A stretch of DNA of 64,000 nt from Mayamaea pseudoterrestris (GCA_027923505.1 BROI01000002.1:2294001-2358000); one strand, 5' to 3'. Positions 22,376 to 60,108 are shown, counted from the stretch's first letter. Translations and numbers: made by a program. The notes: generated by a model from the sequence alone, not told the origin.

Positions 22376-23087
22376 CTTATATGCTGATTGTTACACTGAA
22401 GCAGCAATCACGCTACGACGAGTATGCTGTACAACGCGGAGATCGGTAGAATGTGTGCCATGGTGTGTCGTCCAATGTTTTTTTGCCGTGGCGTGAAGTC
22501 GGACCGGTATCAATCCAGTACCGCGTGGTCGGCAAACTCCCGCAAATCACGGTGCAAGAGTCGCGGTTACGATTACCAAAGCCGCAACAACCATCATGGT
22601 ATTGGGAGAAAATATAAGTGTGGACATCTATGAGCTCGGAGGTTCCCATCGGCATGGCAATGAACCTGGCTGAATTTCGCCAATGACTCACAGTCTATTA
22701 GCTCGGCTGTACCGGCAGTCCTTGCAACACGGAAAGATGCTGCTGCATACAACCTATACGTTCTCGGAATGAAATAAACATCATGCAAATACGATACCGA
22801 TATCATGCAATGTCGCGACAGTATGCCATGAGGCTCAGCCACGGTACTTGCATTCTCCTTAAGCCGCTCGCTGTATAATTTCCTCTCGCGATCGCCCAGC
22901 AGCTCGAAATATTATTGCTGGCTGCTACAAAGTAGAGTGAGGGGAACGATCGTTTGTCATACGTGTACCGCAGCCGCATTTTGCCAAATTTTTAACTAAA
23001 ATCCTTTAAAATTGATTGTTGAGCCTACCACGCTAAAAGGCGTTGAATATGGATGAGCATAATTCTTCGATTGCCTCATTCTAAACT

Positions 23088-24340
23088 TCAACTTGTCGCA
23101 CTAAGACCCACAAGATCGTCCATCGTCAAAGCACCAGACTTGTCCGTGTCGAGTCGATTGAATACAGCAAGAAGCTCGTCAATGTCTTCGCGAGCTACCT
23201 TTTGCAGCGAGACTAGCATGTACGAAAGAAACTCAGCCTTGGTAACCTTTCCGTCGCTATTTAAATCTAGCGTGCGAAGGTCGCGCACCGTGAGTGACTT
23301 TTGCAGAAACCTTTCCTCCGCGTGGTTGCGCTTGCGGTCCATGTACACGGACGCAATGCGGCCCAAAACTTCTCCAATGACTGCCACGGAAAAAGGCAGG
23401 AAAAAGACACAAAACCAGCGAGTACTTGCAGACTGCGGATGGTAGTCACCAAACCCAATGGTATAAGATGAGACCGCAGTCCACTTTGTGCATTGATAGA
23501 AGATGATGGTGAGTGTTTGCTGGCAGACGCTTATCACGTTTCGACGAATCGCTTGGCACTTACGTAAACGCTATCAACGACGCTCCATCCCTCGTGCCAG
23601 CCAACCATAATGCCCAAAAACACAACAAAAAGTACTATGGGAGCTTCCATAACAGCAACCGAAGCAATATCCTTAATGAGTGGCACTGGTGGCTCGAATG
23701 GCGGGTGAACATGGGCTCCTCGGTGTCCCTCGCGACTGCCAATTGTTCCAAGTATAAGTCTTTGCAGTTTTCGTTTACGCTCAACTGAGATGGTGCTCTG
23801 GCTTTCCACTATAATGTCCCCCTTGAAACAAGAGAATATAGCGTTGTTATTGAGATTGCTCATCGGATAAGTGCGACAAATAATGATTCATCGCTTAACC
23901 ACACTCACCAGTACTCCGAGAAAAATGCCAAGAATGACAATGCCATAGGTAGCCAGGAAGATTAGATACACACGTCCTGCTGCGTTATTGATTTCCACGT
24001 CACCAAAGCCAATTGTAGTGAATGTGACTGATGCCAGGTATAAGGAGTCTCTGACTGAGTGCTTTTCAACCAAATAACTGAACCCAAGTACGGCCAAAGA
24101 ATAGTAAGCGCTAGCATGACACAGAAAGAGTATCATGGCATCCTTGGAACGAGCATAGTCCTGAAAATCTGCTGTCAAGGACCTATCCGAGTCGCTTACT
24201 TCTGCATCCGTCTCGCTCGCAAGCAAAAGATCCTCTTCGTCGGAACGAATTCGTTGTTCACGCGCCCCCGCGCAGCAATTTCGGCGAATTTTTGTGACCA
24301 GCTCTCTTATGAGCTGGTAAATGGTGTTGACTATGTACAT
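23088..24340 (-). CDS. Two-pore potassium channel (TPK/KCO-like) with C-terminal EF-hands, spliced
   Basis: Two pore loops (FTTIGFGD, YTIGFGD) and EF-hands DLNSDGKVTKAE and DTDKSGALTMDD. Splice donors at ~23908 and ~23563; exon limits are approximate. Confidence 0.85.
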
Positions 24341-24450
24341 GGCTCCGTTTTATTCAAACTCATGGCGATGTGAGCTGTGAAGATTGTTGATGTGGTCCGT
24401 CGAATTCTCAAGTCGCGTCGCTCCGTTTTACAATCCCTTTCGCAAACCTG

Positions 24451-27400
24451 CCCGGGATTCGTTGTCCACGTCATCACTATCTTACCGGTACTGAAAGAAG
24501 AACATTGGATTCATGGCGGAATTTTGTTCGCGGCGACGGCTGCTCCGCACATACACGCATATATTTAGATTCGTCCCTCGATTTGCTCTCATACTAATGC
24601 AGGATCATGAGTGAGAATATCGCCAATGCTTTTCCGACTGCTAGCGGCCCTCCCAAGACGCCGCCGTCCTTGAAGAGTCATCGCTTTCTTTTCGCAAAGG
24701 CTGCCGGACTCGACACTCCAGCGGCGACAAAGGTAGACGAAGCAGGAATCTCGCCTTCAATTGTCGCAGACGCAGCTGATACGGACTTTAATGAGGCTGG
24801 CTTGAAAGTTGGGGATCGAATTAAACTACGAAAGCATTTTAGGACTACCGGTAGCCTGGCAAGTCTTCCGGAGAATTTTCCGATGCTGCCTCCGCCGCCT
24901 GCAACCACGAGTGCTATCGCGCATCAAGCACGTTCAAATGCGCCCGAAACTACTCATCTTATGGAATCGCAGCGTGCTGCCGGCCCCAAAACGACTGGCG
25001 AGGAAGAGGAGGAGACGGAAATGGGCAATTTCGTTGGAGACGAGTTCGATGACTATTTCTTGCGGGCCACTGCTGCAAATGCAGATGAAGCATTCGATTT
25101 GAAGTCTGTCGCGGAGTTGAACATGTGGGAAAAGACCAAAATCTTCTATAATAAAGTCATTGGAGGTGATTTTGCGGGGGAGGATGGGAGTATGATTATT
25201 ATCAAAAGTGTCTTGTACTTTAGCCAGGACGGAACGACACGTGCCTCCACGAAACGTACACGCATGATAGCGTTGAATTCTCTAATCGGCCGCACGCCGT
25301 CCAAGTCAGTGAATGATCGTGCGAAGGAGGCTCTGAAGAATCTGATTCGAAACTTGATGGTTCAGGAGACGAAGGATCTGAATAGTGGCTTGTCGAATCC
25401 ACACGTTGTCATTACGTACAAAGACACGCTGCATATGCTCAACTCGCTCCTCATGTCTGAGGAAAACGGTATTATTCCAACCCGCTACTTGGAACTGATC
25501 CACTATCAATTGGTGGGTCAGGTGACGGGCAAGCGCAGCATTGAACGTAACACTATCGCAGCCAGCTCGTGGCAATTGCGCATTGAAGTACCGGTACCCG
25601 GTGGACAAAAGTTTCGCATGATGTCCTTTATACACTGCTACATGAAGGAGAAAGGCCTCGGGACATACATCGTGTCGTTTATGGAAGCAGACAGTTTGGA
25701 GATGAACTTGGTCATTATTACCTTGATACTCCTTGAGCGCAAGGGGATGATTCGAAGCGCTATTGACGTGTATGAGGGACGAGAGCAGCTTTCCATCGAT
25801 CCCAACATTTTTGAGACACCAGCAGCACTGCTGGTAAAGATCAAGGCTGCTGAGAAGAAAGCCAAAGTTGAAGTGATCAAAAGATTGAGGGGCGACGAGG
25901 AAGCGGACGAAACTCGCTCTGCTTTAAAGGCGTTCATCTCCCACATCATCGCACAGGATAAACCGGGTGACAAAATACCTTTCTACACGAACTACCATGA
26001 ATCACTACTAATGAACAGTCGTTCCGATGCGGAAAATAATGCAAACTATCGTGAACTAGGAGAGCGTTGTGGTTACCGACCCACACAAAGGAACAACTTT
26101 AGCGCTACTGGAGGGCGAGCGTTTTGTCGCCAGGCGTCGCGCAATATCAATAGTCTTGGCGTTGAGATTGACTCACATTTGAACAAATCATTGTCCCACA
26201 GCAGTGCCATTGCTCTCAAGCATTATGAAAACGCCAATGCCTACCGTGAAATTATGCCAGTCAACATTTTCCATCCAGGAATCGACCGCGACATGGCTGT
26301 TTTTGCTGTGAACACGAGCGAGGTAACGCCTGCATTTAAGCGACCGGAGTTTTTCAAACCTAACTGGACTCCGCAATTGGCACCTTTGCCTTCGGCCATA
26401 GAATTCATCACGAAACAAGCATTCCGTCCTTTACTGAACTGCCCGTGTCCAGTCCTTGGCTGCTCGTTCCCGCCTTGCTATTATGCTGGTGACTTGAAAA
26501 CGCATGTCCACAAGAACCATAGCAAAGGACGTCACACCTTTCTCTGTAAATGTAACCGAACATGGGACACCTTCCTCAAATACCGTCGCCATATCAACGG
26601 CACAGATGGGTGCACTCAGTGTCCACAAAAGGATTTGGATCCGCTTGTCATTCCAGACAATTATAAACCGTCTATTCCGCCCCCAGGAGTGGCATATTTT
26701 CTCTGCAATGCATGTCCTGAAAAATATTTTACGACACGCAAGGGGGTTACGCGCCACATTTCGGAGCACCACAAGGGAGCAGAAGTTGGCTACAACGATG
26801 GATTATTTTGCCCACCTGTCGCAAGTGGTGCCGAGACTCTAGGAGCACCTTCAGCGGCTAGCACGGGATCTGTCGGTGGAGGTAAGACCGCATCACGCAA
26901 ATGCACCGTAAAGTTCTCCTTTGGCCAGAGGAGAAGTACCGGCACGCATGCGGCGCGAGGGACGGCTATTGACACGTCAACGGCGCGAGCGACGGATACT
27001 GGGGATTTGTTAGCATCGGTACCACCTACAAGCAATCTCATAGAGTCTTTTGCTGATCCGTTTGCATCGGTTCCGCTTGCGAGCAATTTCATAAAGACTT
27101 TTACTGATCCGTATGAGAGCCTGCTGATCAGGAGGGACGAAAGATTCCAGCAACCAGATAATGTCGTGCACCCTACCACCGCGGCTGATGCGCAACCGCG
27201 TCCTCAAAGCGATCTTGACCTAAACCCCGAATTGAACAATCCTCGAGGCGATGCACGTCGACGTCTCAATCATTCTACCGCACATTATTTCGCGATGGCT
27301 CAGCCGCATGGATGGCATGCCACAGATTCTGATGCCGAAGATGAAATTACGCTGGTCCCACTGTAGTGGTAGGTAGCAATAGGATGATTGAAATGGAATT

Positions 27401-27506
27401 AACAAAACTTGCAGAAGAACTGACAATAGTGTAGCCAGCGAGGTTGGTTGTTGTGGGTCTTGCTAAGTTCTCAAAACGGAACCTTTGTAGCAAAAATTAT
27501 CCCGGG
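24451..27506 (+). mobile_element. Putative Crypton-like tyrosine-recombinase DNA element bounded by CCCGGG copies
   Basis: CCCGGG lies at 24451-24456 and 27501-27506 inside a perfect 15-bp inverted repeat (aaacctgcccgggat 24444-24458 / atcccgggcaggttt 27499-27513). The repeats enclose a single YR-like ORF. Confidence 0.55.
24607..27366 (+). CDS. Putative tyrosine recombinase with C-terminal C2H2-type zinc fingers
   Basis: Box I-like QVTGKRSIE (~25519-25545), box II-like SATGGR (~26101) and SLSHSSAIALKHY (~26188-26226). Zinc fingers CPVLGC..HVHKNH, CKC..RRH and CNAC..RHISEHH. Intronless, 919 aa. Confidence 0.6.
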   Translation: MSENIANAFPTASGPPKTPPSLKSHRFLFAKAAGLDTPAATKVDEAGISPSIVADAADTDFNEAGLKVGDRIKLRKHFRTTGSLASLPENFPMLPPPPATTSAIAHQARSNAPETTHLMESQRAAGPKTTGEEEEETEMGNFVGDEFDDYFLRATAANADEAFDLKSVAELNMWEKTKIFYNKVIGGDFAGEDGSMIIIKSVLYFSQDGTTRASTKRTRMIALNSLIGRTPSKSVNDRAKEALKNLIRNLMVQETKDLNSGLSNPHVVITYKDTLHMLNSLLMSEENGIIPTRYLELIHYQLVGQVTGKRSIERNTIAASSWQLRIEVPVPGGQKFRMMSFIHCYMKEKGLGTYIVSFMEADSLEMNLVIITLILLERKGMIRSAIDVYEGREQLSIDPNIFETPAALLVKIKAAEKKAKVEVIKRLRGDEEADETRSALKAFISHIIAQDKPGDKIPFYTNYHESLLMNSRSDAENNANYRELGERCGYRPTQRNNFSATGGRAFCRQASRNINSLGVEIDSHLNKSLSHSSAIALKHYENANAYREIMPVNIFHPGIDRDMAVFAVNTSEVTPAFKRPEFFKPNWTPQLAPLPSAIEFITKQAFRPLLNCPCPVLGCSFPPCYYAGDLKTHVHKNHSKGRHTFLCKCNRTWDTFLKYRRHINGTDGCTQCPQKDLDPLVIPDNYKPSIPPPGVAYFLCNACPEKYFTTRKGVTRHISEHHKGAEVGYNDGLFCPPVASGAETLGAPSAASTGSVGGGKTASRKCTVKFSFGQRRSTGTHAARGTAIDTSTARATDTGDLLASVPPTSNLIESFADPFASVPLASNFIKTFTDPYESLLIRRDERFQQPDNVVHPTTAADAQPRPQSDLDLNPELNNPRGDARRRLNHSTAHYFAMAQPHGWHATDSDAEDEITLVPL

Positions 27507-27835
27507 CAGGTTTTGTGACGTCATATACTGATGCGACAGATGGAGTCCCGGAAAGATTTTTCAGTCTGATACTTTCCTTCAGCATCAGTACAATGTGGTA
27601 GATGATTATTACTCTTTAGTGCACTACTAAGGCAGTTATAGCTATTGTATTTAAAGAATCCCTCATCAGAAGAGTCACTTCCTTTGCAATGGCTGCCAAC
27701 TCAACACTCCAGTGGCAACAAAGGTGGTAGATGAAGAAATCATTCCTGCCCCTTAATCTTTCAGTATCCTTGAGATTTTGGCATGAATTATTTGAACACA
27801 CTCTGTGGCATCCACTCTTTGTGTTGCCAAATTGA

Positions 27836-28636
27836 TTGGACTTTGGCGAGAAGCAGCGGGCGGAACTGGTGGACGTACACGCTGAATTGGAGATACTGAA
27901 ACAGCAAGGCAAAGGCTTGGAAATATATGAAGCTCTTTGCAAGGAGCGTGACAAGGCTTTGACGATGAATGCTGAGAGAATTGCGTTTGAAAAAGCTATG
28001 AAAGATAGGGGTGAAGTTAGCCCTGCAACTGCAGCAAGAGCTGGTATTGTTCGACTGGCGAAGGAGCTTAGATCGAATGGGCCTATTACTGATGATGACA
28101 CTTGGGACGGACCCGAGGCGCAGCGCGTGTACGAGCAATTTATTGCCGAACCTCCGTCGGCGCAGCGAGACGTCTCGGTCGATCCGCACACGTGTACCTT
28201 CTGTCGCAAAGTCACGACGCACAGGCTTCAGTGCTGCAGTCGGTGCAAGAAGCAGGCGTACTGCACCAAGGAGTGTCAAGTTAGTCACTGGAAGGCACAC
28301 AAGAAGGAGTGTATTCCGATCGAAGAGTTGAGCAAGGAGGATACCAAGCGCCTGCCATTGACATGGGAGCAATTGGAGGAATTTGGCGTCGCCCCTGGCA
28401 AGAGCTTGGAAGTTCGTTTTATTCATCAAGAACCACATTTGCGATTGATCGCCTTGTGCAAGGATCGTGCAGGCATTTGCAAGCGAGTCGCCGCCTACAC
28501 GGAGAGTCGAACGATTCCCGGTTTCACAACGGGCAAGGTGTTGGTCTGGAAGAATCCACGGTTCCATGGTTTCCTGGATGGATCTTCGGGCGCCCGAATC
28601 GAGGAGGAAGACTTGGTAAACATTCGAATCAAATGA
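27836..28636 (+). CDS. MYND zinc-finger protein (5' end uncertain, possibly disrupted)
   Basis: MYND motif CTFC..CSRCKKQAYCTKECQVSHWKAHKKEC. The ORF starts at TTG immediately after an in-frame TGA at 27833. Confidence 0.8.
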   Translation: MDFGEKQRAELVDVHAELEILKQQGKGLEIYEALCKERDKALTMNAERIAFEKAMKDRGEVSPATAARAGIVRLAKELRSNGPITDDDTWDGPEAQRVYEQFIAEPPSAQRDVSVDPHTCTFCRKVTTHRLQCCSRCKKQAYCTKECQVSHWKAHKKECIPIEELSKEDTKRLPLTWEQLEEFGVAPGKSLEVRFIHQEPHLRLIALCKDRAGICKRVAAYTESRTIPGFTTGKVLVWKNPRFHGFLDGSSGARIEEEDLVNIRIK

Positions 28637-28741
28637 AGAAATATAACAGAATGCTGTAATCTGTGCTGCTTACTTTTTATTGTTGCAAGTACTACTGTAA
28701 TTGTAGACTGCAAATAATTCTCCTGTCAGGCAAGCTCAATT

Positions 28742-28984
28742 ATGTCCTTTTCTCATCCATTCGCTTGCTCCTACTGCGATACACTAACAAGCGTTAAGTT
28801 TCAATGCTGCAGCCGGTGCAAGAAGAAGGCTAAGGCTTACTATAGCAAGGACCGCCAGAGGGATCACTGGATAGCGCACAAAGAAGATTGCATTCCATTT
28901 GCTGGGACGCTGATGAGGTTGGGACATTGCCACTCACTTGGGAGCGACTCGAAGCATTCCCACGCTCTCATGATCTGCCGATGA
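28742..28984 (+). pseudogene. Degenerate tandem duplicate of the MYND gene
   Basis: CSYC..QCCSRCKKKAKAYYSKDRQRDHWIAHKEDCIP has lost Cys ligands. LPLTWERLEAF follows in another frame and matches LPLTWEQLEEF of the upstream gene. Confidence 0.75.
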
Positions 28985-29153
28985 CACGTATGGTGCGCGT
29001 TTCCAAAACGATTATTTGCGGAACCTCGTTTTGGAATCATGGTCGGTACAATCTGATCCGGCGAAGTGACAGGATGAATTTGAATGAGAAGGGACGAGAC
29101 GAGAGACCAGGGGAAAAAGGATATTAATACAATGATTGGTCGACTGACTTTAA

Positions 29154-31082
29154 CTACCTCCCGACTGCACTAGACGGTGGAGGCCACGCATCCTTTCCAT
29201 CAGCTGGCTGGTATTCAATGTACATCGGTCGACCAAGTACCTTGACACCATTTTTCGCCACTGCAAGAGCAGCAGCTTCAGCAGACTCCATTTCAACCCA
29301 CGCTTGACCGGAGAATTCGCCAGTCTTGCGATCCATTCGCCAAACAATGTGCGTCGCGCCAGGTAGCGTTTGGATCAAGAGCTCATCCGTAATACTTTTG
29401 CGGCACATGTTTCGCAAAAAGAGCCGCGTAATGCCGTCGGGATTCGCTTCAGAAACCCACTCCTCGCCCTTTGACGACAGCAAACCTTTCTCCAGCAACG
29501 CCGCCTCGTATTCTTGCAAATCATGTTGCTCTTTTTCTCGCAATTCATGCTTCGATTGAATGTTTTGCTGGACGCAAAGGTCACACCGGACGGATCGATC
29601 AATGACTTTAATGCCCTCCTCGTGCGCCTTCCAGCAATCTCGGCAAATGAGGCTTGGAACGCCGCAGGTTGGACACCGACGCTTGCCGCGGTACATGTCC
29701 CAAGCCTTGTCGCAGGCTTCACACTTACCCAATGGTTGTAAATCAATGGCTGACAACTTCGAGTCGGAATCGCAAGGTTGCGAAAATGCGACCGCGGATA
29801 CGGATTCCTCCTTTGACAATGCAGCAGCTTGCTGCACAGGTGGATAATGTGCGAATCGCTTGTCAAATACATAGTTCTGCGAGTGAAGATTGTTGATATG
29901 TCAGCGAATGCGAGATCATCAAACATGTCCCTGCGGAAACCAAAAGAATAGAGTTCACTCACCTTGCCCTTCCAATATCCACCATCGGGAAACTCTTTAA
30001 AATACTTGTCAATACCACCCTGCAGTTGATACACACCCTTGATGTTCAAATCCTTGACCGCTGGATCCGTTTCCATTTTATACTTGAGCAGCGCACTCGC
30101 CCGCTCACACCTTATACCACCGGTACAATACATGAGCACCGTCTTGTCCTTGAGTGACTGCTGCGTCTCTGGATCATTGAGCCAGACTGGAAACTCGGTC
30201 GACTTGCGCATGTGCGGATCCAGCCACGTTGCACTTGGTGGATTGAACCGACCAATGTTGGTTTCGTAGTGGTTGCGCACGTCAATGACCACCGTCTCGG
30301 GCTGCGAAAGTTTCGCGTGATAGTCGCGCGGCTCCAAGTGCGTGCCGCCGTACTGCGCCATACGCGGAGCGTCTTGCAAGCCATAGTTTACCAGCTCCGT
30401 CGCTGGAATGAGTTTCAAATCGCCAAAGGCTTGCTTGTGCGGCAAGTCGTGCGTCATTTTAAATTCCGTGCTGCAAAACAGCTCGGGCTGCCATTGACGA
30501 AGATGATTGCAAAAGTCATGAATGGCACGTTTGGTGCCAGTCAGTGTGCAGTTCAAGCCTTCCCGAGCGACGCGCATGCGTCCCTTGACGCCAGCCTGCG
30601 ATGCAATCTCCTGCACCTTTGGCTTGACCGTCTTGCTGTAGTACTGCGCCGACCATGCGGGCTCGACGTATTGGTAAAAGAGCAGCAGTGATGTATTGCA
30701 GTCAGTTTCAGCTTGCGGCTTGCTCGTGACTTCTTGGAGAGCCGATGACTCGACAAAGGGACGAGGAGACTCCACCGTAAATGCAACTGGAGCGGCAGTC
30801 GCTGCGGCAGATGGAGGCGTCTGCTTGCTCAAGGATGAATCATCAGTAGCAGCGTCATTTTTTGACGGCGACAGGGAGGACGAGAATGAATCATTATTCT
30901 CTTGAGATTTTCGTTCTCGCTTTCTCTTTTCCTTTTAGCGTTTCTTCTTAGCGCGGCGATCATCATCATTATCCGAGTCAATGCTTGCATTGTCGTCCTT
31001 GTCTTTATCAAGTGATCGTCGCTTTTCCTTTTTAGCCTTTCTCTTTTCGTCCTTTCGTTTCTCCTTCTTTGACTCCTTCATG
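29154..31082 (-). CDS. Rhodanese-domain protein (TSTD2/TrhO-UPF0176-like) with C-terminal RRM; intron 29962-29877; in-frame TAA at 30937-30935
   Basis: Motifs LLFYQY, GRMRVAREGLNCT, IDVRNHYE, MYCTGGIRCE, YQLQGGI and NYVFDKR. RRM-like LFLRNM..FSGQAWVEM. Lys-rich N-terminus. Confidence 0.85.
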
Positions 31083-33213: not shown

Positions 33214-33503
33214 CAGATATTCATGTTGAAATTATGGTTTTGGAATGTGTTCACTAATAATATATGTTTTGAGCTTGGATTTTCTTGTGCACAAAGCACT
33301 CTTGCATGAATTTAGTTTTAAAGTGTGTAAAACCAATTTCATTTGAACTGAAATCGTTTTGGATCAATTTGGTATGAACTACTTTGGTTTGAACTAATTT
33401 ACAGGTAATGCAGTTTCCATTTTGTTTTACACTCTGGATCTGGACCCTAGTGTATTTTCGAATGAACGTTTCCAATGATTCGTCGTGGTTCGTGCATAAA
33501 AAC

Positions 33504-34376
33504 CCGGCAATCAGAAGCCTACGACTGCTGATTGCCCTCGGTCGCTCGAATGCTACTTTTCCGCACAATGGCTACTTTAGCTAGATGGACAACAAGTCCT
33601 AGATGGTCTTGGTTTGTGGTTTGGACCCGGCAAATCCGGGTTCCAAAGCAGAAAGCACGTCAGCTATGACGACTCAACCCGGGTGGGTGGGTGGGACAAA
33701 AAGCTTTTGGAAGACTAGTAACTAGGCGAACAAAAGACAAGAATGAGAGGCCGTCATGGTCTATGCGCGACGACCCCCCTAACTGACTGCCAACTACTCC
33801 GCATGCGTTCTCAGAACGGTCAGCTAACGCATAGAAGCCTAGACTGCTGATTGCCCTGTGCGAATGCTACTTTTCCGCACAATGGCTACTTTAGCTAGAT
33901 GGACAACAAGTCCTAGATGTTCTTGGTTTGTGGTTTGGGCCCGGAAAATCCGGGTTCCAAAGCAGAAAGCACGTCAGCTATGACGACTCAACCCGGGTGG
34001 GTGGGTGGGACAAAAAGCTTTTGGAAGACTAGTAACTAGGCGAACAAAAGACAAGAATGAGAGGCCGTCATGGTCGATGTCGGCCGACGGACCTCCGAGC
34101 CCCAACCCTAACTGACTGCCAACTACTCTGGCGATGCCTCCGCCTGATGGGCCGCGGCATGTTCTCAGAACGGTCTCCTCTTGCGCATCCGTTCTAAGCC
34201 GGACAATCAGAAGCCTACGACTGCTGATTGCCCTCGGTCGCTCGAATGCTACTTTTCCGCACAATGGCTACTTTAGCTAGATGGACAACAAGTCCTAGAT
34301 GGTCTTGGTTTGTGGTTTGGGCCCGGAAAATCCGGGTTCCAAAGCAGAAAGCACGTCAGCTATGACGACTCAACCC
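33504..34376 (-). repeat. Split direct repeats (B-A-B-A'-B) at the 3' end of the YR retrotransposon
   Basis: A ~170-bp unit (caatcagaagcctacg...gactcaaccc) occurs at ~33508-33680, ~33833-33993 and ~34204-34376. A second unit starting gggtgggtgggtggga occurs at 33681 and 33994. Confidence 0.85.
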
Positions 34377-38636: not shown

Positions 38637-41198
38637 TCAGGCCATGAGATCGAGGAAAGCTTGTGTTTTTCTGAACTTGCCGGCGACGCGGTTATCGTCG
38701 ATAAATGTGCTCAATTGACGAAGAGTATCCGCCGTGTAACGGGAATTTGGAATGTCAATGTGCGCGCGACGACAACTTTGGTTTGAGCAACCTGCATGAT
38801 CTCGAAGAATGTATGGAATACAAATGTGGACGCCATCGACCTTTGGAATGATAATGCCTGCCCGACTCCAGTCACTTATCAGATGATTGACATTGTAATC
38901 GCCTCCATTTACACCGTTTTCCCAAGCGAGGAGCGCGCGTGCTGCATTACGAACGCGACCATTATACGTACCAGTTTGCGACGTGGAGCGTGACGAGTTG
39001 CCGCGTGGTGGGCGTTCAGCCGAATTATGGTCAGGGCGCGAGGCGCTGCGTTCGAATGATCTATCAGCCGTGGCTGTCGAGGCGAAGCGTGTGTTTGTGT
39101 CGGGTGCGTGATGGCGAGTTGTAGGGGGCGCTGCGTTTGTGGACGGTTGGAAATGTACACTTGTGAATCGACCATCGCGACGTAGGCTACTTGAAGCTGC
39201 ATCATTTGTGTGATTACGTCGAGACGAGATGGGGAGAACATCCGGCGGTACTGGTTTGTTGAAAGGTCCTTTGGTTGGTAACGCAACTGCGCGCAGAATG
39301 TCGGCCGAGAAGACGTCGTCGGCAGTGGTGCGCCACTTTTCCAGCCGCGTTTGCAGCTGGATGTGGCCTTGGACGCGAATGGTGGGGCGGAGGATTAAAA
39401 CATCTGATCGTTCTGGTGAATCATGGACGTGAGCCTCAATGCAGTGAGCTGCTGGGTTGTCGGTTTCAGGCCAGTCTGACATTATTTCAATTAACTGGCA
39501 AATGTGAAGAATGACGGCCGCTGTTGCCGCCAGGCGCTTTGATCCAAGAGCATCCCAGACCGTACCAAATTCATGGACGTCAAATCGTTTGAATAAATAA
39601 AGGGAATTACCCGCCAATGGTGAAGCGAGTGACCACGGCGAGCAGCCAGGGTGGATTTTGTCGAGCCGTTCATACCGATCGGGCATATGGAACATTTCTT
39701 GAAAGAACCACATGAGATTCTTCCAAAATTTGAACATGTTAAGACTAGTGAAGCCATTCTCTGGTAAGCGTATGCCAGTTGACTGAATCGTCGAGACAAA
39801 ATGCCATGGGGTTAGCGCGACAGGGAGAAGGTGCGCTTGGAATTTTAGGCCGGGCTCGAATGCCGCTGATTGAATTGCCTGGATATATTCATTGCGCTCA
39901 AACAAGTCAAAACAGTCGATGGCCGGGCAACTGTATAAGGTGTACTTATGAGCATTGATCGCGGATCTGTAGGCGCTGTGAAGCATTGCGGTGACGTTGG
40001 CTGGCTTGGCAAGGGTGATGGCAGTCGACTTTTCCTTTTCCGAACTTTTGATTCCGTAGACCTGGCTTGCGAATTTTGAGCTAATGTAACCTGGCACCAG
40101 GCGATGATTTGGTGGATAGACAATGTCTGGAGACGGGCCAATGTCGAAAGCTAGGCCGCAATGGTGAGCTCCTAGGAAAGCGAGGCGAGCATGATGAATC
40201 GTCATGATACCGTTTACATAATTGTCTCTTGCGAAGATGTATGGGTGTGGCTGGAATTTTTTAGCTGATGGGAGAAGGAACATTGGATATTTCTTGCAAC
40301 TGGAATTGAAAATGTCGACCAAGCGGCTTTCGGGTTGCTCGCATGGGAGCATGTACTCAGAGGGAGATGTAACTGCTGCGACTGCTGTACCAAAATCTGG
40401 AAGCTGATAAATTTTTCGTGAGGTGCGTGGAACTTGGTAACATTCAATAGTTGTTCCAATTGAGATGTCGTCGCGACGGGAGCGTGAGGAGACGGTATCG
40501 GTCTCGTGATCGGACGAATGGCGCCGTTTCTTGGGAGGTTCTTCGAATGGATCTTGGCGGACATGCGCAGGAGAAGAAACTGTTTTGAACTGGTCGCCGA
40601 ACAGGTTGTTAAGAATTGCACTCGCGTCCACTGGAGCGGTTGCTTTGTCTTTCGACTGCGGACTTTTGGAACCCGCATGTTCATCCTTGGAGAAAATATG
40701 TAGAGAGTCCGGAACATTGTCGCGCTGGCCTGGCAACTGGAGGACTTTAAACGCTTCAAGAAATGATGGCATGCCGCTCTTGAGGAACGGAATGTGAAAT
40801 TTGCTGCGCCATCCTGCGGTCTTTGGGTCGCACAACGCGAAAATGACGGGGCAATCCAGGGAATGATGGCGGTGATAATCGGATAAAAGCGGAGTGCCGT
40901 TTACCGCCTGGAGTGAGAGTGACAGAAAGTGCTGCAGCTTCTCCGTCCATGCCTTCTTATCCGAACCAAAAGAATTGGAAACATGATCCATGACTGTCTT
41001 GGCGCGAATGGTGATCTCCGAATAAAGAAAAGTACGTTCGGCCGAGTCGTCGTCTTGCGCCGCGAGCTCGAGAAAAGTTTCTTTTACATCAAACAGGAAA
41101 AAGGACTCGATGGCCATCTTAAGTGGCTCCATGTTGCAGGCGCGGAGCCACACTGGTAAAGTTGGAATTGAGTCGAGCCAGTCGTACGTGTCGACGTT
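38637..41198 (-). CDS. ORF1 (gag-like) of the YR retrotransposon, 5'-truncated by a Copia LTR
   Basis: Long ORF directly upstream of RT with a C-terminal CCCH-like CIPYILRDHAGCSNQSCRRAH. The first 21 codons of the ORF call are LTR-derived. Confidence 0.75.
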   Translation of the reverse strand, partial: NVDTYDWLDSIPTLPVWLRACNMEPLKMAIESFFLFDVKETFLELAAQDDDSAERTFLYSEITIRAKTVMDHVSNSFGSDKKAWTEKLQHFLSLSLQAVNGTPLLSDYHRHHSLDCPVIFALCDPKTAGWRSKFHIPFLKSGMPSFLEAFKVLQLPGQRDNVPDSLHIFSKDEHAGSKSPQSKDKATAPVDASAILNNLFGDQFKTVSSPAHVRQDPFEEPPKKRRHSSDHETDTVSSRSRRDDISIGTTIECYQVPRTSRKIYQLPDFGTAVAAVTSPSEYMLPCEQPESRLVDIFNSSCKKYPMFLLPSAKKFQPHPYIFARDNYVNGIMTIHHARLAFLGAHHCGLAFDIGPSPDIVYPPNHRLVPGYISSKFASQVYGIKSSEKEKSTAITLAKPANVTAMLHSAYRSAINAHKYTLYSCPAIDCFDLFERNEYIQAIQSAAFEPGLKFQAHLLPVALTPWHFVSTIQSTGIRLPENGFTSLNMFKFWKNLMWFFQEMFHMPDRYERLDKIHPGCSPWSLASPLAGNSLYLFKRFDVHEFGTVWDALGSKRLAATAAVILHICQLIEIMSDWPETDNPAAHCIEAHVHDSPERSDVLILRPTIRVQGHIQLQTRLEKWRTTADDVFSADILRAVALPTKGPFNKPVPPDVLPISSRRNHTNDAASSSLRRDGRFTSVHFQPSTNAAPPTTRHHAPDTNTRFASTATADRSFERSASRPDHNSAERPPRGNSSRSTSQTGTYNGRVRNAARALLAWENGVNGGDYNVNHLISDWSRAGIIIPKVDGVHICIPYILRDHAGCSNQSCRRAHIDIPNSRYTADTLRQLSTFIDDNRVAGKFRKTQAFLDLMA

Positions 41199-41510
41199 TG
41201 TAACTTGTAAATCAAATCGTTGCACCTTTCGCTTGTAGCTGTCCTTGGATGGCCAATCCAAGCTTGCAGTTGCTACAATACGAGAGACGAATAAATCGCT
41301 TTCTTAACTCTTCAAGCTTAGTAAGTCTGCTTGTTTCTACTCTATATCGCACTAGTTTCAGCAATATACTCGTTGAATCGCTTCGAAGCCGTCGCTGCCA
41401 CGCATCACGCGATCGTGAGGCTGTGGTGAGCCGCGAGTGCCGCTGTGTCACCCTATCGGACATTCGGTGTGACTTGCCCGATTTTCGCTGTTTTTCGTTC
41501 GCATCCTGCA
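41199..41510 (-). repeat. LTR (3') of Copia family A, copy 1
   Basis: ~311-bp repeat with TG..CA termini on the minus strand. A polypurine tract TTGAGGGGAG lies just upstream on the minus strand. Confidence 0.92.
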
Positions 41511-44500
41511 ACTCCCCTCAAGTCATACCTAATAGTTCGATTCCTTGAAGAGCAGGTTCTTTAAGTGCTTGCTTGCCGTAGCCCGCGGAAGAAACTTGGT
41601 AAGTACATCCGCCGGGTTTGTCGTTCCCATGATGTGGTTGAAATTAATAATTCCCGCCGCAATCGCTTCGCGTACACGGTGAAATGCCAGTGCATTGTGT
41701 CGCTTCGTCAGACTAGAGTGCGGTAGGTTGCTGCTTTGCGTTACCGACTTGTTGTCTCCAAACATCCATGAAGGTCCGTCGAGCGGAACTCCCAACATGC
41801 GTAGCGTGAAGCGAAGATCCATGATCTGCTCCGTGCTCACTCTCGCTGCTACAAACTCCGAGCCGTACGTCGCCGTCTCGACCGTCGCTTGGCGTTTCGA
41901 AAACCAATCGACGACTGTTCCATTCAACATGTGTAGCATGCCCATCGCTGCCCGTCCCGTCGTGTAATCGTGGTACAGGTTTGCATCTTCGAACGTTGAC
42001 ATTCGCACCGCCTTGCCGCGCGGCGTGGGCATGTTCCACGGAAGCTCTTCGCAGATCTTGCCGTACACACTGTAATCCCAATCCATCTTGTCAACTGTCG
42101 CGTATCGCTCGTCCGTTGGAATCGAAACGTTGAATCGAATCGCTCCATCCGGGTATCGTCGTAAGTATCCGCAAATATGCTTCAACCGTTCCAAGTGCCC
42201 CGCTCGTGGCGCAGCTCGGAATCTCCCCATAGTCATGACAGCACAGTGAATGTCGAATCGACATAAACTTACTGCCCATTGCAACGCACCAATGATCGAT
42301 TGATACTTCGCAATTCCGTCGTCGTCAAGTTCTTTCGTTTCGTCGAGTTCCGGATGATCGCCGTCGCGTAGTGGACTTGTCTGCGGTCGCGGTTCCTCGC
42401 CGAACATTTCTTTGTAGTTCGCTAATAGTCTTGTGACGTACTTCTTCGCTCCGAAGCAGAGTACGCCGTCGTCGTCCCGCCAAACGTCTGCGCCCAAATG
42501 ATATGCCAATGGACCGACGCCCTTCAACTTGTAGTTGTAGTTCTCAATTAAAAGATCCGTTAGTTCTTTCGGATTCTTCATCGCTATCGCTAAATCGTCG
42601 ACATACACACAAACGTATTCGTAGTGCGTGCCCTTATCGCGCATCCACACGTCGGGTTCTGCGATACACGGCGTGAAGCCAATGTCGCGGAGCGTGTCTG
42701 CAAAGTGTTCGTGCCAGCGTGCGCCTGACGTGCGAAGACCGTATAGTGCCTTCACGATCGTGAGCGTGTGACCCTCGAGCTCCCCGAACTCCGGACCTGC
42801 CACGATATAAACCTTCTCTTTCGTTTTCGCTTCCAAGTATGCGTTGCCGACGTCAGCTGCCCACAGTTCCAGACCGTTGAGTTCCGCTAACATCGCTACC
42901 ATTCGTAGACTTCGCAATGACACAACGCCCGAGTAAACTGAATCCTTCGGCGGCTCTGTCATATGTCCTCCTGCGACGAGTCGTGCTTTCCGTCGCAAAT
43001 CGTGCTTGACATCGAATATCATGTGCACGTTTATTCGTTTCCATGGCGCCGGCATAACCTTACCGACTCCTTGATCTGCGAACGTGTCGTAATCATTTAT
43101 CTGATTTAATTCCGTTCGAATCGCATCCGTCCACAGCGTGTTGCCGTTGATCTCGTCGAGAGCTTTCGCATCTTTATAATTGCGCGGCAACCTTACGCCG
43201 AATTTGTAGCGTACGCCGTTTGCTTTCGATTTTCGTTTCGCCGCTGTTACCATCTGTCGAAACTTCTTTCGCTTCCGAGTGTAATGCTCCAGCTGCTTCC
43301 ATCCTGGCTTGTCGAGTAAGCCGTGCTTGAGTCCATACTCTGCGATTGTTATCGGATCGTCCTTCTTCATGATCGCGAGAGGCTCCCACGTCGTCGTTCC
43401 GTCAGTCCATTCGACGAGAACGTTACTTGAACTTCCTTTGTATGTCGGATCGTTCGGTTTCAAATTAAGCTCGTGTCCGATTACCTTCGTGAATACCCAC
43501 TGAGTCGCCGGATCGTTTCGTATATCTTCGTCCATCTGTCGTTCGATTAAATCCGACAGTTCGTTGTAACTTATTAAGTCTTTCGCTGGCTCCTCTCCCA
43601 TCTGGATCAGGAAACCTTTCGTCGTTTCGAGTAGCTCGTTATCGCGTACTTCGATATATTCGCATACAGTCGCTCGCATTTTCTGACCATTTTCGTGTTC
43701 CCTTACGAACGTGCGTCCGATGAGTTCGCTTGGAGAGAACAGAGGGCATTTATTCCCTGATTCTTGCTCAGCCCTTCTGAAGAACTTCGCTGGTACGTTG
43801 GCGTGGTTCGCCATCGGAATTGTTTCGTCGTCGTTTCCTTCGTAGTTGTCGTGACTACTTTCTGTCGCATGCGTGCTATGGTAGCGTCCTGTCGCGAGAT
43901 CTGGAGTTTCAAAATTTCGCTCGCTTGCGCGTGTAGCTTCTTCAGAAATCTCCCCTCCAGACTCAGGGAAGGAAGGCAACTCTCGTGGTAACAAGTAGCT
44001 GCGCGAGACCACGTTGGAGCGCGGAATCGCCTGAAGCGTGTCGTCCGTCAGAACGAGAAAAGTCATGTGCGGACCGCTATTCTCTGCGATGCCCATGAAT
44101 CGGCCGTTGCCAGATCGTACCGCCGAGGGAAACTCCCCTGCGCCTCAAACGTGACCGGTTCCCACCACTTGAAATGTAACAAAGGCGAAATATCCGGCAA
44201 ATTTCCGAACGCAACTTCCGTTGGAGTGCGCCATCCCAGCGATTTCGTCGCGAGGACGTTCAGAATCATGATTACGAATTTAATCAGCAAAACCCAGCAA
44301 TGCCCTGGCGAACCCGAATCTCGTTGGAGGTTCTCCATCATTGGCTTAATGTGCGACGTGTGACGTTCGCATGGATTTTGTTCTGGGTGACCCGGTTCTG
44401 TGGTCACTTGAGGAATATTGTACATCCGACAGAGATCCCTCACAGCCTTGCCAGTCTCCGACTTGGCATTGTCGCTGAGCAGTCCGTTAGGAGCGCCCAC

Positions 44501-47100
44501 TTCGCGGATAAAATCCTCTAACGCGTTTGACATTTCGCTCTCCGACTTCATCGGGTAGCCGCGCGTGTAAAAACTTTCTCGTCCAACAAGAGCTGCATCT
44601 TAGTAGCTCCCCCATGCCCGGGAATTCCATCATCCAAAGCTGGCGTGTCAGAGTGTATCGTGTCCGTGGCGTGTTCGCGCAACCGCTGAGCGTTCGCGGC
44701 CGGAAATCGTGATTCGTGAGGTGTCGAAATGGTAATCGCGGGTGTGCGCTGAGATGATACCATGCTTCCGTGTGGCGTAAAGTCTGTTGAACTCGCTCAG
44801 TCGGGACCCATCCGAGTGCGGCCGAAGAGCATTATAGTTCGGTTCCTTGCTTCGTGCTTCCGCAAATTAACGCGTGAAAACTGGCGTGTCGCGCGCACCG
44901 ATTGATCAGTACGTCAGTTCGTCGCCAGTGCGTGTCGGCGTGTGACGATTGCGGTGCGTGATACCGTCATCGTCGATCGTTCGTCGAAAGATCCATAATC
45001 GTGATCTCGTTCGTCGAAATCGTCGTTGCGCGTGCTTTCGACATCGTAAACTCGGTCCCGGCGTCCGGCGTCTGGAGTCGGTCTTATCCAAATCATCGCG
45101 CGTGGGTTTCGTCCGTCCAAGTACCCAGGCCATCGCGAATCGCCAATGGCAAGCGCAGCCTCATGTTTGTCGTGTTCGTTGCGTTCCGCCAAACATGGTC
45201 GGAATTCGTCGACGCGATGTCCCATTGCGCGCAATTGATTCGGGCAATGAATCGTCGGTCCGTCTCGCTTTAAAAGCATACTGGTGACACAAAAAGCAGA
45301 ATGGTTTCGCCACTAAGGAGTCTTAGCCAGTCCGGCTGCAGTGCCAATCTTGAGAGCTGGGACAATATGATCGTCAATACCAGTCACATCCACCTCGGCG
45401 TTCGTTTCCGGAAACGACGGCTGTCTCCTCGCATAAGCCTCCGTTGGCGCCGCTGTCGGCGGTCGCCTTCGTTGTCGCTCGTAGTGTGCGCGATTGGCGC
45501 GCATACGACGATGCATGTTGAAGCTGGATGTCCTCGTCCGGTGTTCTCGGTCGTCTGATCCTGTCACTTGCTGAGTTGTAGTACTCGCTTTGTTCGCTTG
45601 CAGAACCCGATGTGCAGCCGTTTGGACTGACATTCACTATTGCCTGGCTGAATATTGTCGTGCCGGGAGCGCGCGTGATCGTTCGCTACAGATTCCGTCG
45701 CGTGACGCTCTTGATGCGCCCGCGTTGACTTGCGTCTGCGTCGTGCCGTGCCTCGTTGGTTCGCGGTCGCCATCCGTTTTCGGTGTCTTGGCGCCGTCGC
45801 CGCTTGTCCCTTCAACTGCTTTCGCTGTCGAACTTCATCTCCAACCAGACTTCATCCTTCACGCTCGCGTGGGTTTCTTCATGATCGCTGCCGTGTTCCG
45901 CCCGATAAGCCGCTTGGGTCGCGCCGCCATTGCCGCCGCCCGCCTCCTTTTCCACTACTGCGCTTGATTGATTGTGCGCTTAGTCTTCGTCTCGTGGGTG
46001 CTTCTTGTCTCTTGTGCGGCACTCTTCTAAGTCGCGTACAACTCGCGAAATTGTCTTCCAGTCGTGTTGCCCCATGTGTTTCTTGATGGCAGTCATTCCG
46101 TCAAAACCTGCTAGCGGCGCTGAATCCGTGTGCTCGGAGAAGCGTCGCGGCATGTCGTATCGTTGTAAACCTGTCAGAGCTTCTCGTCCATTTCGAGCAG
46201 CCAGATGACTTTCTTGTAGACAGTGCGAGAAATTCGATCGTCGGCCTTGACCACTTCTCGGTCCCGCATTCCCCTGCAGTTCGTTCGCGCGTTCCTTCTC
46301 GTGTGAGCAGTGGCGCCTTCTTCGTTCCGTTCGCTCGTTGGTAGACTTCGCGTCCGTCCATCGTCTTCTTGAACTGCTGTCTGCGGGTGATGCAGACGGA
46401 GTTCGCAGTGCGTGGGGAAGATTCTGTATACAAACACATTCTTCTTTGCATCGCCTTCTGTTCCTTCGGTCCCTTTTCCTTCGGGTCTTGTCGTCAAAGA
46501 CTTCGTGGAAGTCGTGCAATGTGCTTTCCTCCGGAATCACTGTTTCCACGGGGAATCCAGCTTTTTCTTTTCCTTCGCGAGAACTGACGTAATTGGTCTG
46601 GTCTTCTCGTCGTCTTCGTCGTCACCGGGTCCGAGTGCGGATGTCGGTGACTGCTTCCGTCACGTTCCGCTTCGGTGGCCCTCGTCGGCTTCGCTCTCGC
46701 TCGTTACGTGGGTCTTGGATTCGTCTTCTTGGATTCCGTTTCGCTTTCCTTCGCTGGAGGTTTGGCTCCTTCCGCCCTTTCGCTGTTGCGCGCTTGGCTC
46801 GTTCCTTCGCTCGTGCTGTGACGAGCGTCGCCAGCGTTTCGGTGGTCGGTTGCGACCATGTCTTGATGTCGACTCTTGCGCCCAAATACCATTCGATCGC
46901 GTTCGTGATCGTGCGTTATTTCATCTTCGTTCGCGAGTGTTCGCTCGTTTCTCGCTTGACATTATGCGCCATCGTCGTCGTCGTCGTTTCGTGTCTCCCC
47001 CCCCCCTTGGCGTTCCGCCGTCGCGAATGGTGCTCCATCTCGATCAATTCGTGGCGATTCTACTCGAGTTCGTCGAATAACTCCTTGAACTGGGGATCTT
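41199..47100 (-). mobile_element. Ty1/Copia family A copy 1: RT-RH intact, integrase/protease/gag full of indels, no 5' LTR
   Basis: ORF 41529-44096 has RKARLVAGG, LYGLRTSG, YVDD and ADVLTK. 44100-47100 is collinear with 56420-59577 but frameshifted. Confidence 0.92.
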
Positions 47101-47495
47101 GAGCGGTGGGTTCATTGTTGCCGAGAGAATGGAAGGTTTGGTTTTTTTGATGGCGCAAGTGACTGCGATTCCTTTGTTGCTGCTACGATGCATGGCCGTG
47201 TACAGGTGCCTCTAGTGGGTGCGCGTGTGTTTGACTCTTGTCATTCTTGTCAGTCAGGTGCGGCAAGCGCTGCGTTTGGCGGCTGCTTGGGCAAATAATG
47301 ATGCGTTTGTTGTCGACTCACTCTGCAAGTTGTCATCGTGTCATTGTTTGTCGCTTGAGTTTGGCATGTATGCATGCTTGTGCGGAACAGTTTCAGCAAG
47401 CTATGAAAAATTTGTAACAGTAGAACTTTTTCCTGCTAGTGTACAAAGTAGCGCTTGGAATTGGAAACTTGCTCGAGGCATGACTCTGGAATGAA

Positions 47496-47902: not shown

Positions 47903-49669
47903 ATGGCGAACGATTCTTCTGAAGATCATAAGGAGAGCGGTAGCTCGGGACGTATCAAGAAGACACCACTCAAGAAGGGAGCAAGCCGCGACGAGTTCAT
48001 GAAGTGGCGCATTGCCTTTGAGCCTGAAGCGCGTCGCATTGGATGCTTGATGTTCTGCGTGCAGGATACGCGTACTGTCGAGCCCTTTATCACTGAGCAA
48101 GAGTATGTTTTGAACAAGATTCATACTGGGCAAACGATGGCGGCAGATGGAGTCACAGCAATCAACACGTTCGTGCCGCCGACGGCGCAGCAGAAGACCT
48201 TCTACCACAAGAACGCCGAGGCGATGGCGGGCTTGATGCTCTGTGTGCAAGACGATGCCATTAAGATGCGTCTGTCGAAGAAGGAGACGGCGTATGAGAT
48301 GTATCAGATGCTCATCAAGGAGTTCGAGACTGCTTACGCGCTCAAAGACTTAACGACTTTTAAGAAGCAGTTGCAGGATCTGTCGCCAAAGCATTGCGAC
48401 AAAGCAGAGAGCTATTTCTCGGAAGCCGACTTGATCAATGAGCATTTAGGATTGATTGGAGACAAGTATAAAGTCTCTGACGAGGAAATGAACATTCAGT
48501 TGTTCCAAGCAATCCCCGATACGTTCGAAACGTGGCGCACTTGGAAGGATATTCACCAAGACAAAGCACCCGAGATGACGGCAAAGGACTTTCGCGATGC
48601 TATGCAGCGTCAATGGGAGCTTAAAGGTCATCCGTGCGGAAAGGTAAAGGGCAAGTTCAGCGACAAGGAAAAGGATCACGCGTTCAATGTTGGCGACAAG
48701 CAATTGGAGAAGAAGGCTTGGGGCAAGAAAGGAAACGGAAAAGGGAATGGCCAGCGCCAAAGTAACTCGCCGGGAGACAAAGCTGCTTGTGAGAAAGCTC
48801 GCAAGGAGAAGCTCAAGACAATTGAATGCTTCAATTGCAAGCAGATGGGCCATTATGCGAGCGACTGTCCGCATCCGAAGATGGACAGCGGCAACAACAA
48901 GGGTAATGGCAAGAGCGAGAAGACTGTCAGCTTCGCCAAGCACAAGAGCAAGAGTGCTATAAAGGATCATGCTTTTGTGATTTGCGAGGATTGCAGTGAT
49001 GATGAATCGACAGTCTTTTACTCGGCAAACGAGCGCAGCGTCGGCTCAGGATCGGCGAGCGTGACTTCATCAACAAGCTCGTCAACCCAAGGAAAGAAGC
49101 TCTGGTGGGCAGACTATCAATGGGATCTTGATCAGGCTGCAGCAAAGGCAGAGGAAGATGGAATTGAGTTCGACGAGGATGAGTTTGACGCGCAGTGGAC
49201 CGGCAAACATTTCGTACCTGAAGAGTCGAAGGAGACTTCGTTCGACGAGCGGAGCGACTATGACTGGAGTCAAGGCAGCCTCAACGTTCCAGACGACGAG
49301 GAAGACTCGAGCATTGAGAGTCGCGCCGGGTTTGAGATGGCGGCAGCTGTTGTTGTCGAAGAAGAGGAAGACTTGGTGTCAGTCGGCAATCTATTCGAGT
49401 CGGATGGAACGGAATGGGAAGCGGACGTACCATTGACGGAGCACGGTGAGCGCATCAAGCGTCAAGATCCAAAGGCGCAAGATGCTTACTGGAGTCAATG
49501 GATCGACTTGGAAAGCTTTGAAAGTTATGCGCGAGCGAATCAGGAAGCAGTAGCAAAGGCTGGATTCGCTGCCGACATTGAGCTTCAAGTCACCAACCGA
49601 GTCGACGCGCTGGACGCTAGTTGGGAGCGTAAAGGCAAGTGCATGGGATGCGACGAGCGTCTCAGTTAT
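47903..49669 (+). mobile_element. Copia-type gag (family B), interrupted by a family A LTR
   Basis: Gag-like N-terminus (TAYEMYQMLIKEF) and a CCHC knuckle CFNCKQMGHYASDC. The ORF runs into the LTR starting at 49670. Confidence 0.8.
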
Positions 49670-60106: not shown

Positions 60107-60108
60107 AT

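Follow-up and report, generated by a model that had tools for sequence, protein, structure and literature searches.

What kind of gene is the intronless open reading frame (ORF) of 919 amino acids (aa) that stands next to a potassium (K+) channel gene in the diatom Mayamaea pseudoterrestris, does it belong to a mobile element, and where would such an element end? We analysed a stretch of 64,000 nucleotides (GCA_027923505.1, BROI01000002.1:2294001-2358000), called here the window, in which the ORF occupies 24607..27366 on the + strand, counted from the first letter of the stretch. A preliminary description had placed it in a tyrosine-recombinase transposon of about 3.05 kb, delimited by CCCGGG sites and inserted into a palindromic target. 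Judged by its modelled fold, the protein is almost certainly a tyrosine recombinase. We lean towards the view that it belongs to a Crypton-like element that is or was mobile, to which two loci and breakpoints in homology point. About an even chance is given to the fuller reading, in which the element is Crypton-like and about 3.3 kb long, has the recombinase as its only gene, is found at two loci in diverged copies that are both transcribed, and has ends other than the CCCGGG sites.

The ORF call corresponds exactly to an NCBI protein (P0125), and a Pfam scan of the 919-aa ORF returned no match. The assignment comes from structure. An AlphaFold2 model of aa 150-730, with 104 relatives as alignment input, has a predicted local distance difference test score (pLDDT) of 89.8 and a predicted template modelling score (pTM) of 0.90. 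Foldseek matched it to only two structures at E <= 0.001, both Cre (top E 7.4e-4). With VIA-align, Cre superposes on the model at Z 15.2 and a root-mean-square deviation (rmsd) of 3.8 Å over 296-303 of about 320 residues, covering both Cre domains and model residues 1-411. Non-Cre recombinases span Z 8.6-11.1, among them lambda Int (11.1), IntI (10.9), XerH (10.4), Tn1549 Int (9.7) and Flp (8.9). Over the 995 chains compared, 58 reached Z >= 8 and ranks 1-30 were all recombinases; the Crypton-derived protein QRICH1 is also among the fold matches (Z 6.1). In a viral structure library the best match was no better than E 0.02. Cre of phage P1 is the best structural match, yet its sequence identity is 7-10%. 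The model contains the two-domain recombinase fold, a helical core-binding domain followed by a catalytic domain, and the AlphaFold2, Foldseek and VIA-align results place this core at aa 150-560 (25054..26286; this and all further features of the protein are on the + strand).

The catalytic residues were assigned through motifs and secondary structure, not by residue-level superposition, and conservation was counted over the aligned relatives covering each column. Box I (TGKRSIE, aa 307-313, 25525..25545) contains Arg I as R310, which lies in TG[RK]RxxE and is kept in 52 of 61 relatives, and E313, kept in 58/63. The lysine K347 is part of CYMKEKG (25636..25656) and sits at the turn of a beta-hairpin, flanked by model strands at residues 187-197 and 201-210; it is retained in 61/75. 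In the first half of Box II (SATGGRAF, aa 499-506, 26101..26124), R504 is Arg II (64 of 72 relatives). Three residues before it, where His II is expected, stands T501; this column has threonine in 56/73 and histidine in 2/73. The second half of the box (SHSSAIALKHY, aa 530-540, 26194..26226) has H531, a column with histidine in 50/69 and asparagine in 15, and, nine residues further on, Y540 (64/70). Arg I, Lys, Arg II, His/Trp III and Tyr are found at their motif positions, and the His II of H-x-x-R is not. Among the 34 rows spanning all six sites, 22 retain R-K-R-H-Y, and 19 of those 22 also have the threonine. The threonine occupies what we take to be the position of Cre H289. In Cre the second-box histidine ranks with the positions that tolerate substitution better, and the H-to-Y spacing of nine is the same in Cre and lambda Int. 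As modelled, the recombinase is catalytically plausible and is predicted to carry out cleavage and strand exchange via a 3'-phosphotyrosine.

The core is embedded in a longer protein, in which a SAM-like module, the Cre-fold core, three zinc fingers and a disordered tail follow one another. The N-terminal module (aa 18-78, 24658..24840) is modelled as five helices with pLDDT 71.3. Its best Foldseek rows are SAM domains with weak E values (0.1-0.4), of which the tankyrase SAM domain matches at a probability of 0.97-0.98 and an rmsd of 1.9 Å over 55-57 residues; the relative P0113 matches SAM_2 under the threshold (E 0.16). The module may accordingly be called SAM-like by weak structural matches. 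It also occurs in several relatives and in an otherwise unrelated protein, P0093 (43% identity, E 1e-13). The fingers are of the Cys/His type (aa 614-638, 647-669 and 700-722, 26446..26772), and the family profile matches C2H2 finger structures with a best E of 5e-11. The tail that follows them includes a conserved basic motif, RPQSD..NP.L.D.RG..RRR (27199..27270), common to P0001, P0004 and P0006. The preliminary description had recognised TGKRSIE, ATGGR, SHSSAIALKHY and the C2H2 fingers in an intronless frame and had proposed a tyrosine recombinase. Both statements hold, the former by the sequence and by contigs of spliced runs, the latter by the Cre match and the residues at the motif positions.

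The protein belongs to a family that has so far gone unannotated. A HMMER scan of 1.84 billion protein representatives, in which the common core is aa 150-725, retrieved 105 relatives with E no higher than 1e-3, of which 56 pass a cut-off of 1e-10 and 26 one of 1e-30; word-based protein searches gave just one and three, compared with the 105 of full HMMER. The closest match from another organism is merely 35-43% identical. Of 27 family clusters checked, four bear a species name, all of diatoms (Mayamaea, Entomoneis paludosa, Fragilariopsis cylindrus and Attheya sp.), and identity to the 919-aa protein among these four is 22-35%. No member of the 105 matches Phage_integrase (PF00589), DUF3435 (PF11917) or DUF3504 in Pfam at E <= 0.01, and none of ten members matches PF11917 at E <= 10; the relative P0121 matches Phage_integrase at E 0.19, under the cut-off. 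Other Pfam domains are present in the 105, namely zf-C2H2 in nine, HA in five, HMG in one and Peptidase_C48 in one. The last is P0044, a relative of 828 aa in which recombinase and fingers are fused to a C-terminal Ulp1-type Peptidase_C48 (residues 557-723, E 1.3e-20). An Ulp1/C48 peptidase is a separate protein in some oomycete Cryptons and is encoded by some CryptonS and CryptonF elements (PMC3212892).

A search with language-model features, which is a lead and not a test, placed Ascomycota DUF3435 proteins closest (score 0.97; 12 of 30 matches), and one of the nearby DUF3435 clusters is also labelled C2H2-containing. The literature searched on tyrosine recombinases, Cryptons and diatom transposable elements, a scope that excludes Repbase and Dfam, contains no description of the present nuclear family of diatoms. 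The passages on Cryptons and Starships in PMC12130899, PMC13465315 and PMC11162782 mention no comparable diatom recombinase. No relative locus was confirmed in metagenome contigs, with a smaller family alignment and protein P0011 as queries, or in viral contigs with the smaller alignment. From sequence comparison the family appears to be unannotated and so far named from diatoms only, and the earlier proposal of an undescribed lineage stands, as a putative new lineage outside the described Pfam recombinase families.

Is the gene mobile? The window copy, P0125, lies on a contig of 2,775,980 bp, and a second copy, P0001 (GKY99041.1, MPSEU_000859800), lies on a 673,252-bp contig of the same assembly. 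Since it is present at two places in the genome, the gene is probably a jumping gene. A single-copy gene syntenic across diatoms would have spoken against the transposon of the preliminary description; two copies on two contigs were found. Both copies are intact and have the full length of 919 aa; 51 residues (about 5.5%) distinguish them, none at a catalytic site. The difference is 7.4% over aa 1-149, 2.2% in the recombinase core (aa 150-560), 5.9% in the finger region (aa 561-730) and 11.1% in the tail (aa 731-919). Within the window, tblastn with the protein and a family-profile search found no second recombinase copy. Exon 1 of the adjacent K+ channel gene is 100% identical to MPSEU_000203500 on the 2,775,980-bp contig, which forms a one-member cluster with its next match at 45%. 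The supplements of PMC9724779 contain none of the four locus-tag numbers looked for.

Contigs of four sequencing runs (X1-X4) were aligned to 22500-29500 at a likeness of at least 85%. X1 and X2 behave as DNA, and the source locus of each contig is not distinguishable. X3 and X4 are treated as RNA because they carry GT..AG minus-strand joints (23483->23564 and 23820->23908). Contigs of X3 and X4 span the ORF over 24550-27220 without any joint, so the gene is intronless. Some RNA-like contigs have no differences from the window over 26104-26450 and 26669-27220, and the window copy is therefore transcribed; further RNA-like contigs have 10-20 differences from it. Both copies appear to be transcribed.

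The ends of the element were sought in the same contigs. The preliminary description had placed them at an exact 15-bp inverted repeat, AAACCTGCCCGGGAT at 24444..24458 (left arm, CCCGGG at 24451-24456) and its exact reverse complement at 27499..27513 (right arm, CCCGGG at 27501-27506). The repeat is present as described, but the homology between copies ends elsewhere. In X1 and X2 a contig with non-window letters at 27366-27460 joins 27483 to 27618, and the 134 bp at 27484..27617, which include the right arm, are skipped or replaced in the contig of the other copy; the intervening letters, if any, are not readable. Loose ends occur at 27834/27840 in X1, X2 and X3, in both directions and with three different right-hand contexts. 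Contigs matching up to 27834 or 27840 continue with 237 or 222 unlike letters, and these two unlike flanks are mutually related. Other contigs match from 27840 on only, including an X3 RNA contig with 255 unlike letters upstream. Three right-hand contexts of one sequence are more than a single diploid locus can supply. Homology with other loci thus ends 327 bp past the right arm and 474 bp past the stop codon, and a right end at 27840 is well supported.

On the left side, one X1 contig matches to 24509 and continues with 49 unlike letters, which puts the breakpoint 51 bp inside the left arm. In X1 and X2 contigs that match from 24541, the 50 preceding letters are, by eye, a diverged form of 24513-24540. 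Both breakpoints fall at the end of an ATTGGA hexamer on the + strand, at 24504..24509 (X1 loose end) on the left and at 27835..27840 (loose ends of X1, X2 and X3) on the right. ATTGGA occurs 22 times on the + strand of the 64 kb, or by arithmetic about 3e-4 per position. Breakpoints and hexamers together suggest a Crypton-style unit of 3.3 kb on the + strand, a candidate mobile or duplicated segment of 3331 bp at 24510..27840 between ATTGGA direct repeats. Drawn with these limits, the unit excludes the left CCCGGG arm, which would be host DNA, and takes in the right one within its 3' region. The preliminary description had itself named copies whose ends do not coincide with CCCGGG as evidence against CCCGGG ends, and homology that ends at 27834/27840 is such evidence; its insertion into a palindromic target likewise loses support, as the boundaries probably lie elsewhere.

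The unit contains one internal repeat. A stretch of about 70 bp from the N-terminal coding part (24672..24743, +), covering part of the coding sequence of the SAM-like module, recurs in the 3' region of the unit as a decayed, frame-broken copy (27669..27737, +), with a local alignment score of 65 compared with 19.4 +/- 2.2 (maximum 26) in shuffles. Summed contig depth, which is higher over 27648-27881, did not serve as a measure of copy number. A decayed copy of the element's 5' end was also considered for the sequence beyond the right arm, and rejected: beyond the 70 bp the score is 49 against 30.8 +/- 6.9 in shuffles, and ungapped identity to the element 5' end is 30-36%, which is background.

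What, then, is the CCCGGG repeat? It encloses the whole transcription unit tightly, with the ATG of the ORF 148 nt past the left arm and the right arm 132 nt past the stop codon. The left arm is 104 nt upstream of the K+ channel ATG (24340, minus strand), close to the 100 bp given earlier. Allowing up to two mismatches, the only matches to the 15-mer in the window are the two arms, and CCCGGG occurs six times there. Removal of 24451-27506 yields the 20-bp palindrome AAACCTGCCCGGGCAGGTTT, as the preliminary description had stated, and the hypothetical circle junction ATCCCGGGAT is likewise palindromic. The palindrome on deletion is inevitable, because any inverted repeat with a palindromic core gives one. 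In 30 block-shuffles of the window, perfect inverted 15-mer pairs 200-6000 bp apart numbered 0.7 on average and at most 4, compared with one in the window, and by itself the repeat is therefore not beyond chance. The chance that such a repeat brackets the recombinase ORF is about 2e-4 for 300-bp flanks, by arithmetic from the shuffles. The arm flanks differ, TTTCGC on the left and TGTGAC on the right, and there is no target-site duplication. A terminal-inverted-repeat transposon was rejected on these differing flanks and on the lack of a transposase domain.

The chance value of 2e-4 is one ground for the element as first described, a CCCGGG-bounded segment of 3.05 kb (24451-27506) inserted site-specifically into the palindrome AAACCTGCCCGGGCAGGTTT. 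In that reading the restored target and the circle junction are both palindromes around one core, and recombinase core sites are built in this way. A repeat of this kind is, however, expected by chance at 0.7 per window. The contig of the other copy skips 27484-27617, is collinear beyond it and keeps its homology to 27834/27840; there is no loose end at either arm, and neither the 15-mer nor the 20-bp palindrome occurs again in the window. We consider a CCCGGG-bounded element improbable.

The same coincidence could instead mean that the inverted CCCGGG sites are the recombinase's own and that they flip the 3-kb segment with its gene and promoter, as Flp does, which could rewire the promoter region that it has in common with the K+ channel gene. 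Recombination between inverted sites with a symmetric core is expected to yield inversion, and the left arm lies between the divergent transcripts, which reach 24389 on one side and begin at 24550 on the other. Flp of the yeast 2-micron plasmid is a eukaryotic tyrosine recombinase with inverted target sites; its inverted repeats are long and plasmid-borne. No strand-changing joint was found here in the contigs of the four runs, and the other copy appears without the right arm, and so a flipping segment seems very improbable. The repeat is real but probably not an element boundary; it could be a chance occurrence, an accessory or inversion site, or a target inside repeated sequence.

Two short sequences beside the arms were seen as well. 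The perfect palindrome TGACGTCA lies 2 bp to the right of the right arm, at 27516-27523, and CCACGTCAT lies 7 bp to the right of the left arm, at 24466-24474; at both, ACGTCAT begins 11 nt after CCCGGG. Possibly these are putative bZIP-type promoter motifs in a short shared promoter region.

The chief alternative to a mobile element is a domesticated host gene. Its product would be a DNA-binding protein derived from a recombinase, with oligomerisation by the SAM-like module and targeting by the fingers, and its two immobile paralogs would stem from segmental duplication or a residual haplotig; the inverted repeat and ATTGGA would be coincidental. Two intact, transcribed copies, a core far more conserved than the tails (2.2% as against 11.1%) and the replaced His II are all in keeping with this. 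So are the count of two known copies, with no empty site or circle in the contigs, and an assembly bigger than its k-mer estimate. Crypton recombinases have been domesticated repeatedly (PMC3212892), and QRICH1 is among the fold matches. The DUF3504 proteins (ZMYM, QRICH1 and KCTD1) are domesticated Cryptons that, like the diatom protein, combine the recombinase fold with zinc- or DNA-binding parts. DUF3504 lacks most residues of the catalytic tetrad (PMC3212892), however, whereas the diatom protein retains every one of R, E, K, R, H and Y. Domestication also fits poorly with a K+ channel neighbour that is not duplicated, with species-named clusters (4 of 27) of such low identity despite a very large library, with fusions that vary within the family and include the Ulp1-type peptidase, and with homology that breaks directly after the same hexamer at both ends. 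A domesticated pair is an unlikely explanation, though one to be taken seriously.

Several observations weigh against the mobile, ATTGGA-bounded element that we favour. There are two copies only, about 5.5% apart in protein, with no sign of recent movement, and a domesticated gene would account just as well for expression, intact frames and a conserved core. The haplotig-purged assembly has 41 contigs and 30.6 Mb compared with a k-mer estimate of 27.2 Mb, at a heterozygosity of 2.97% (PMC9724779); because of this excess and this heterozygosity the 673-kb contig could be a leftover haplotype, which would not explain the lone copy of the adjacent K+ channel gene. The left end comes from one contig of one run (X1) and could be an indel in another copy or haplotype, and the locus from which the contigs derive cannot be told. 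The letters after 24509 are not the right flank of the window and occur nowhere in the window, so a simple empty site is not supported; neither of the 30-letter consensus strings of the loose ends at 27840 and 24509 matches the window with three mismatches or fewer. The empty site, circle junction and inversion envisaged in the preliminary description left no joint (24451->27507 for the empty site, or 24509->27841 with the ATTGGA limits) in the contigs of the four runs, a weak negative in that contigs drop rare forms. The bracketing of a single gene by CCCGGG stays an unexplained coincidence under ATTGGA boundaries. Finally, His II is replaced by threonine, and catalytic activity is a prediction only.

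If the element moves, its mechanism may be pictured as follows. With its core-binding domain and fingers the recombinase would bind to the ends of the element; cleavage would fall to Y540, with the help of R310, K347, R504 and H531. The element would excise as a circle, and strand exchange at a short core of identical sequence would then insert it again. This core, most likely ATTGGA, would be left as a direct repeat at both ends (24504-24509 and 27835-27840).

How does such an element compare with known systems? Cryptons likewise have a tyrosine recombinase without reverse transcriptase or RNase H, and the unit here has one ORF and no other Pfam domain. DIRS, Ngaro and PAT elements were rejected, as no reverse transcriptase or RNase H domain is present and the sole internal repeat is the 70-bp stretch. 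The CryptonS elements of stramenopiles share the single-gene size of about 3-4.7 kb, the low copy number and, in some members, the C48 peptidase. They have terminal direct repeats of 5-6 bp, and CryptonS-1_PTri of Phaeodactylum tricornutum is 4671 bp long, with four copies and the ends CTGTAAG (PMC3212892); the candidate ATTGGA ends resemble these short repeats. The motifs differ. The CryptonS, A and I recombinases compared by eye (PMC3212892, Additional file 4) all show H-x-x-R and then W or H, and the CryptonS motif SHSxRRG ... RGxW contrasts with G-x-T-x-x-R-K ... H-S ... H-Y in the diatom family, which unlike CryptonS also has zinc fingers and the SAM-like domain. With no DUF3435 or DUF3504 match and with motifs that differ by eye in the material available, the family was not found to belong to CryptonF, S, A or I.

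DUF3435 recombinases, the group of the Starship captains and of fungal CryptonF, are nearest by language-model features, but the diatom family has no PF11917 match. Captains sit at one element end, between direct repeats (PMC11162782). Starships are fungal and carry a large cargo behind a captain at the 5' end; for the diatom element, with no PF11917 match, no evident cargo and homology that ends 474 bp past the stop codon, a Starship was rejected. Cre lacks the SAM-like and finger domains, and the diatom protein is encoded by a eukaryotic nuclear gene.

The genes on either side bear on what the unit may have done to its surroundings. The K+ channel gene (23088-24340, minus strand; 361 aa; Pfam Ion_trans_2 and EF-hand) is divergent from the recombinase gene and 270 bp from it. 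Its introns, 23484-23563 and 23821-23907, are confirmed by spliced contigs, and its transcript extends to at least 24389, 160 bp from the recombinase transcript start at 24550. At the right end of the unit begins an ORF of 266 aa with a MYND finger (27836-28636, +); a second MYND ORF was seen at 28742-28984. The TGA at 27833-27835 closes the downstream MYND frame at the junction, and on translation the X3 RNA-like contig that diverges at 27840 keeps this frame open through its 255 upstream letters. A full-length, expressed MYND paralog or allele thus exists elsewhere, and the window copy therefore looks 5'-truncated. The junction appears to truncate the MYND gene, or to adjoin a truncated one.

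Farther off, 41187-64000 contains four copies of a repeat of 3.5-6 kb that are 95-99.9% identical (41187-47101, 49668-53157, 53513-59576 and 60107-64000), and a 313-bp unit stands in tandem at 59795-60420. The four are probably a cluster of long terminal repeat (LTR) retrotransposons; Ty1-Copia is the main repeat class according to the M. pseudoterrestris genome paper. Tandem or dispersed repeats of about 170-250 bp, 96-98% identical, lie at 33501-34376 and contain two of the six CCCGGG sites (33678 and 33992). Rfam and tRNA scans around the element gave no matches.

A bolder reading combines these features. With this gene a superfamily of tyrosine-recombinase DNA transposons confined to diatoms would be founded, separate from Starships as well as from CryptonF, S, A and I; threonine for histidine, SAM-like oligomerisation and finger targeting would be its marks. 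The window copy would be a hemizygous insertion at the K+ channel promoter that cuts off the 5' part of the MYND gene, and the CCCGGG pair would be a second, internal set of sites. We hold this to be possible but doubtful.

Eukaryotic DNA transposons with a tyrosine recombinase are rare, and their lack of long terminal repeats makes them difficult to spot. In the literature searched, CryptonS-1_PTri is the only one listed from diatoms. The family described here, with about 100 relatives and an annotation as 'hypothetical', offers a new query for the repeat annotation of diatom genomes and a natural experiment on whether a recombinase can do without the second-box histidine. Should the protein be active, a transformable group of algae would have a compact, site-directed recombinase of its own.

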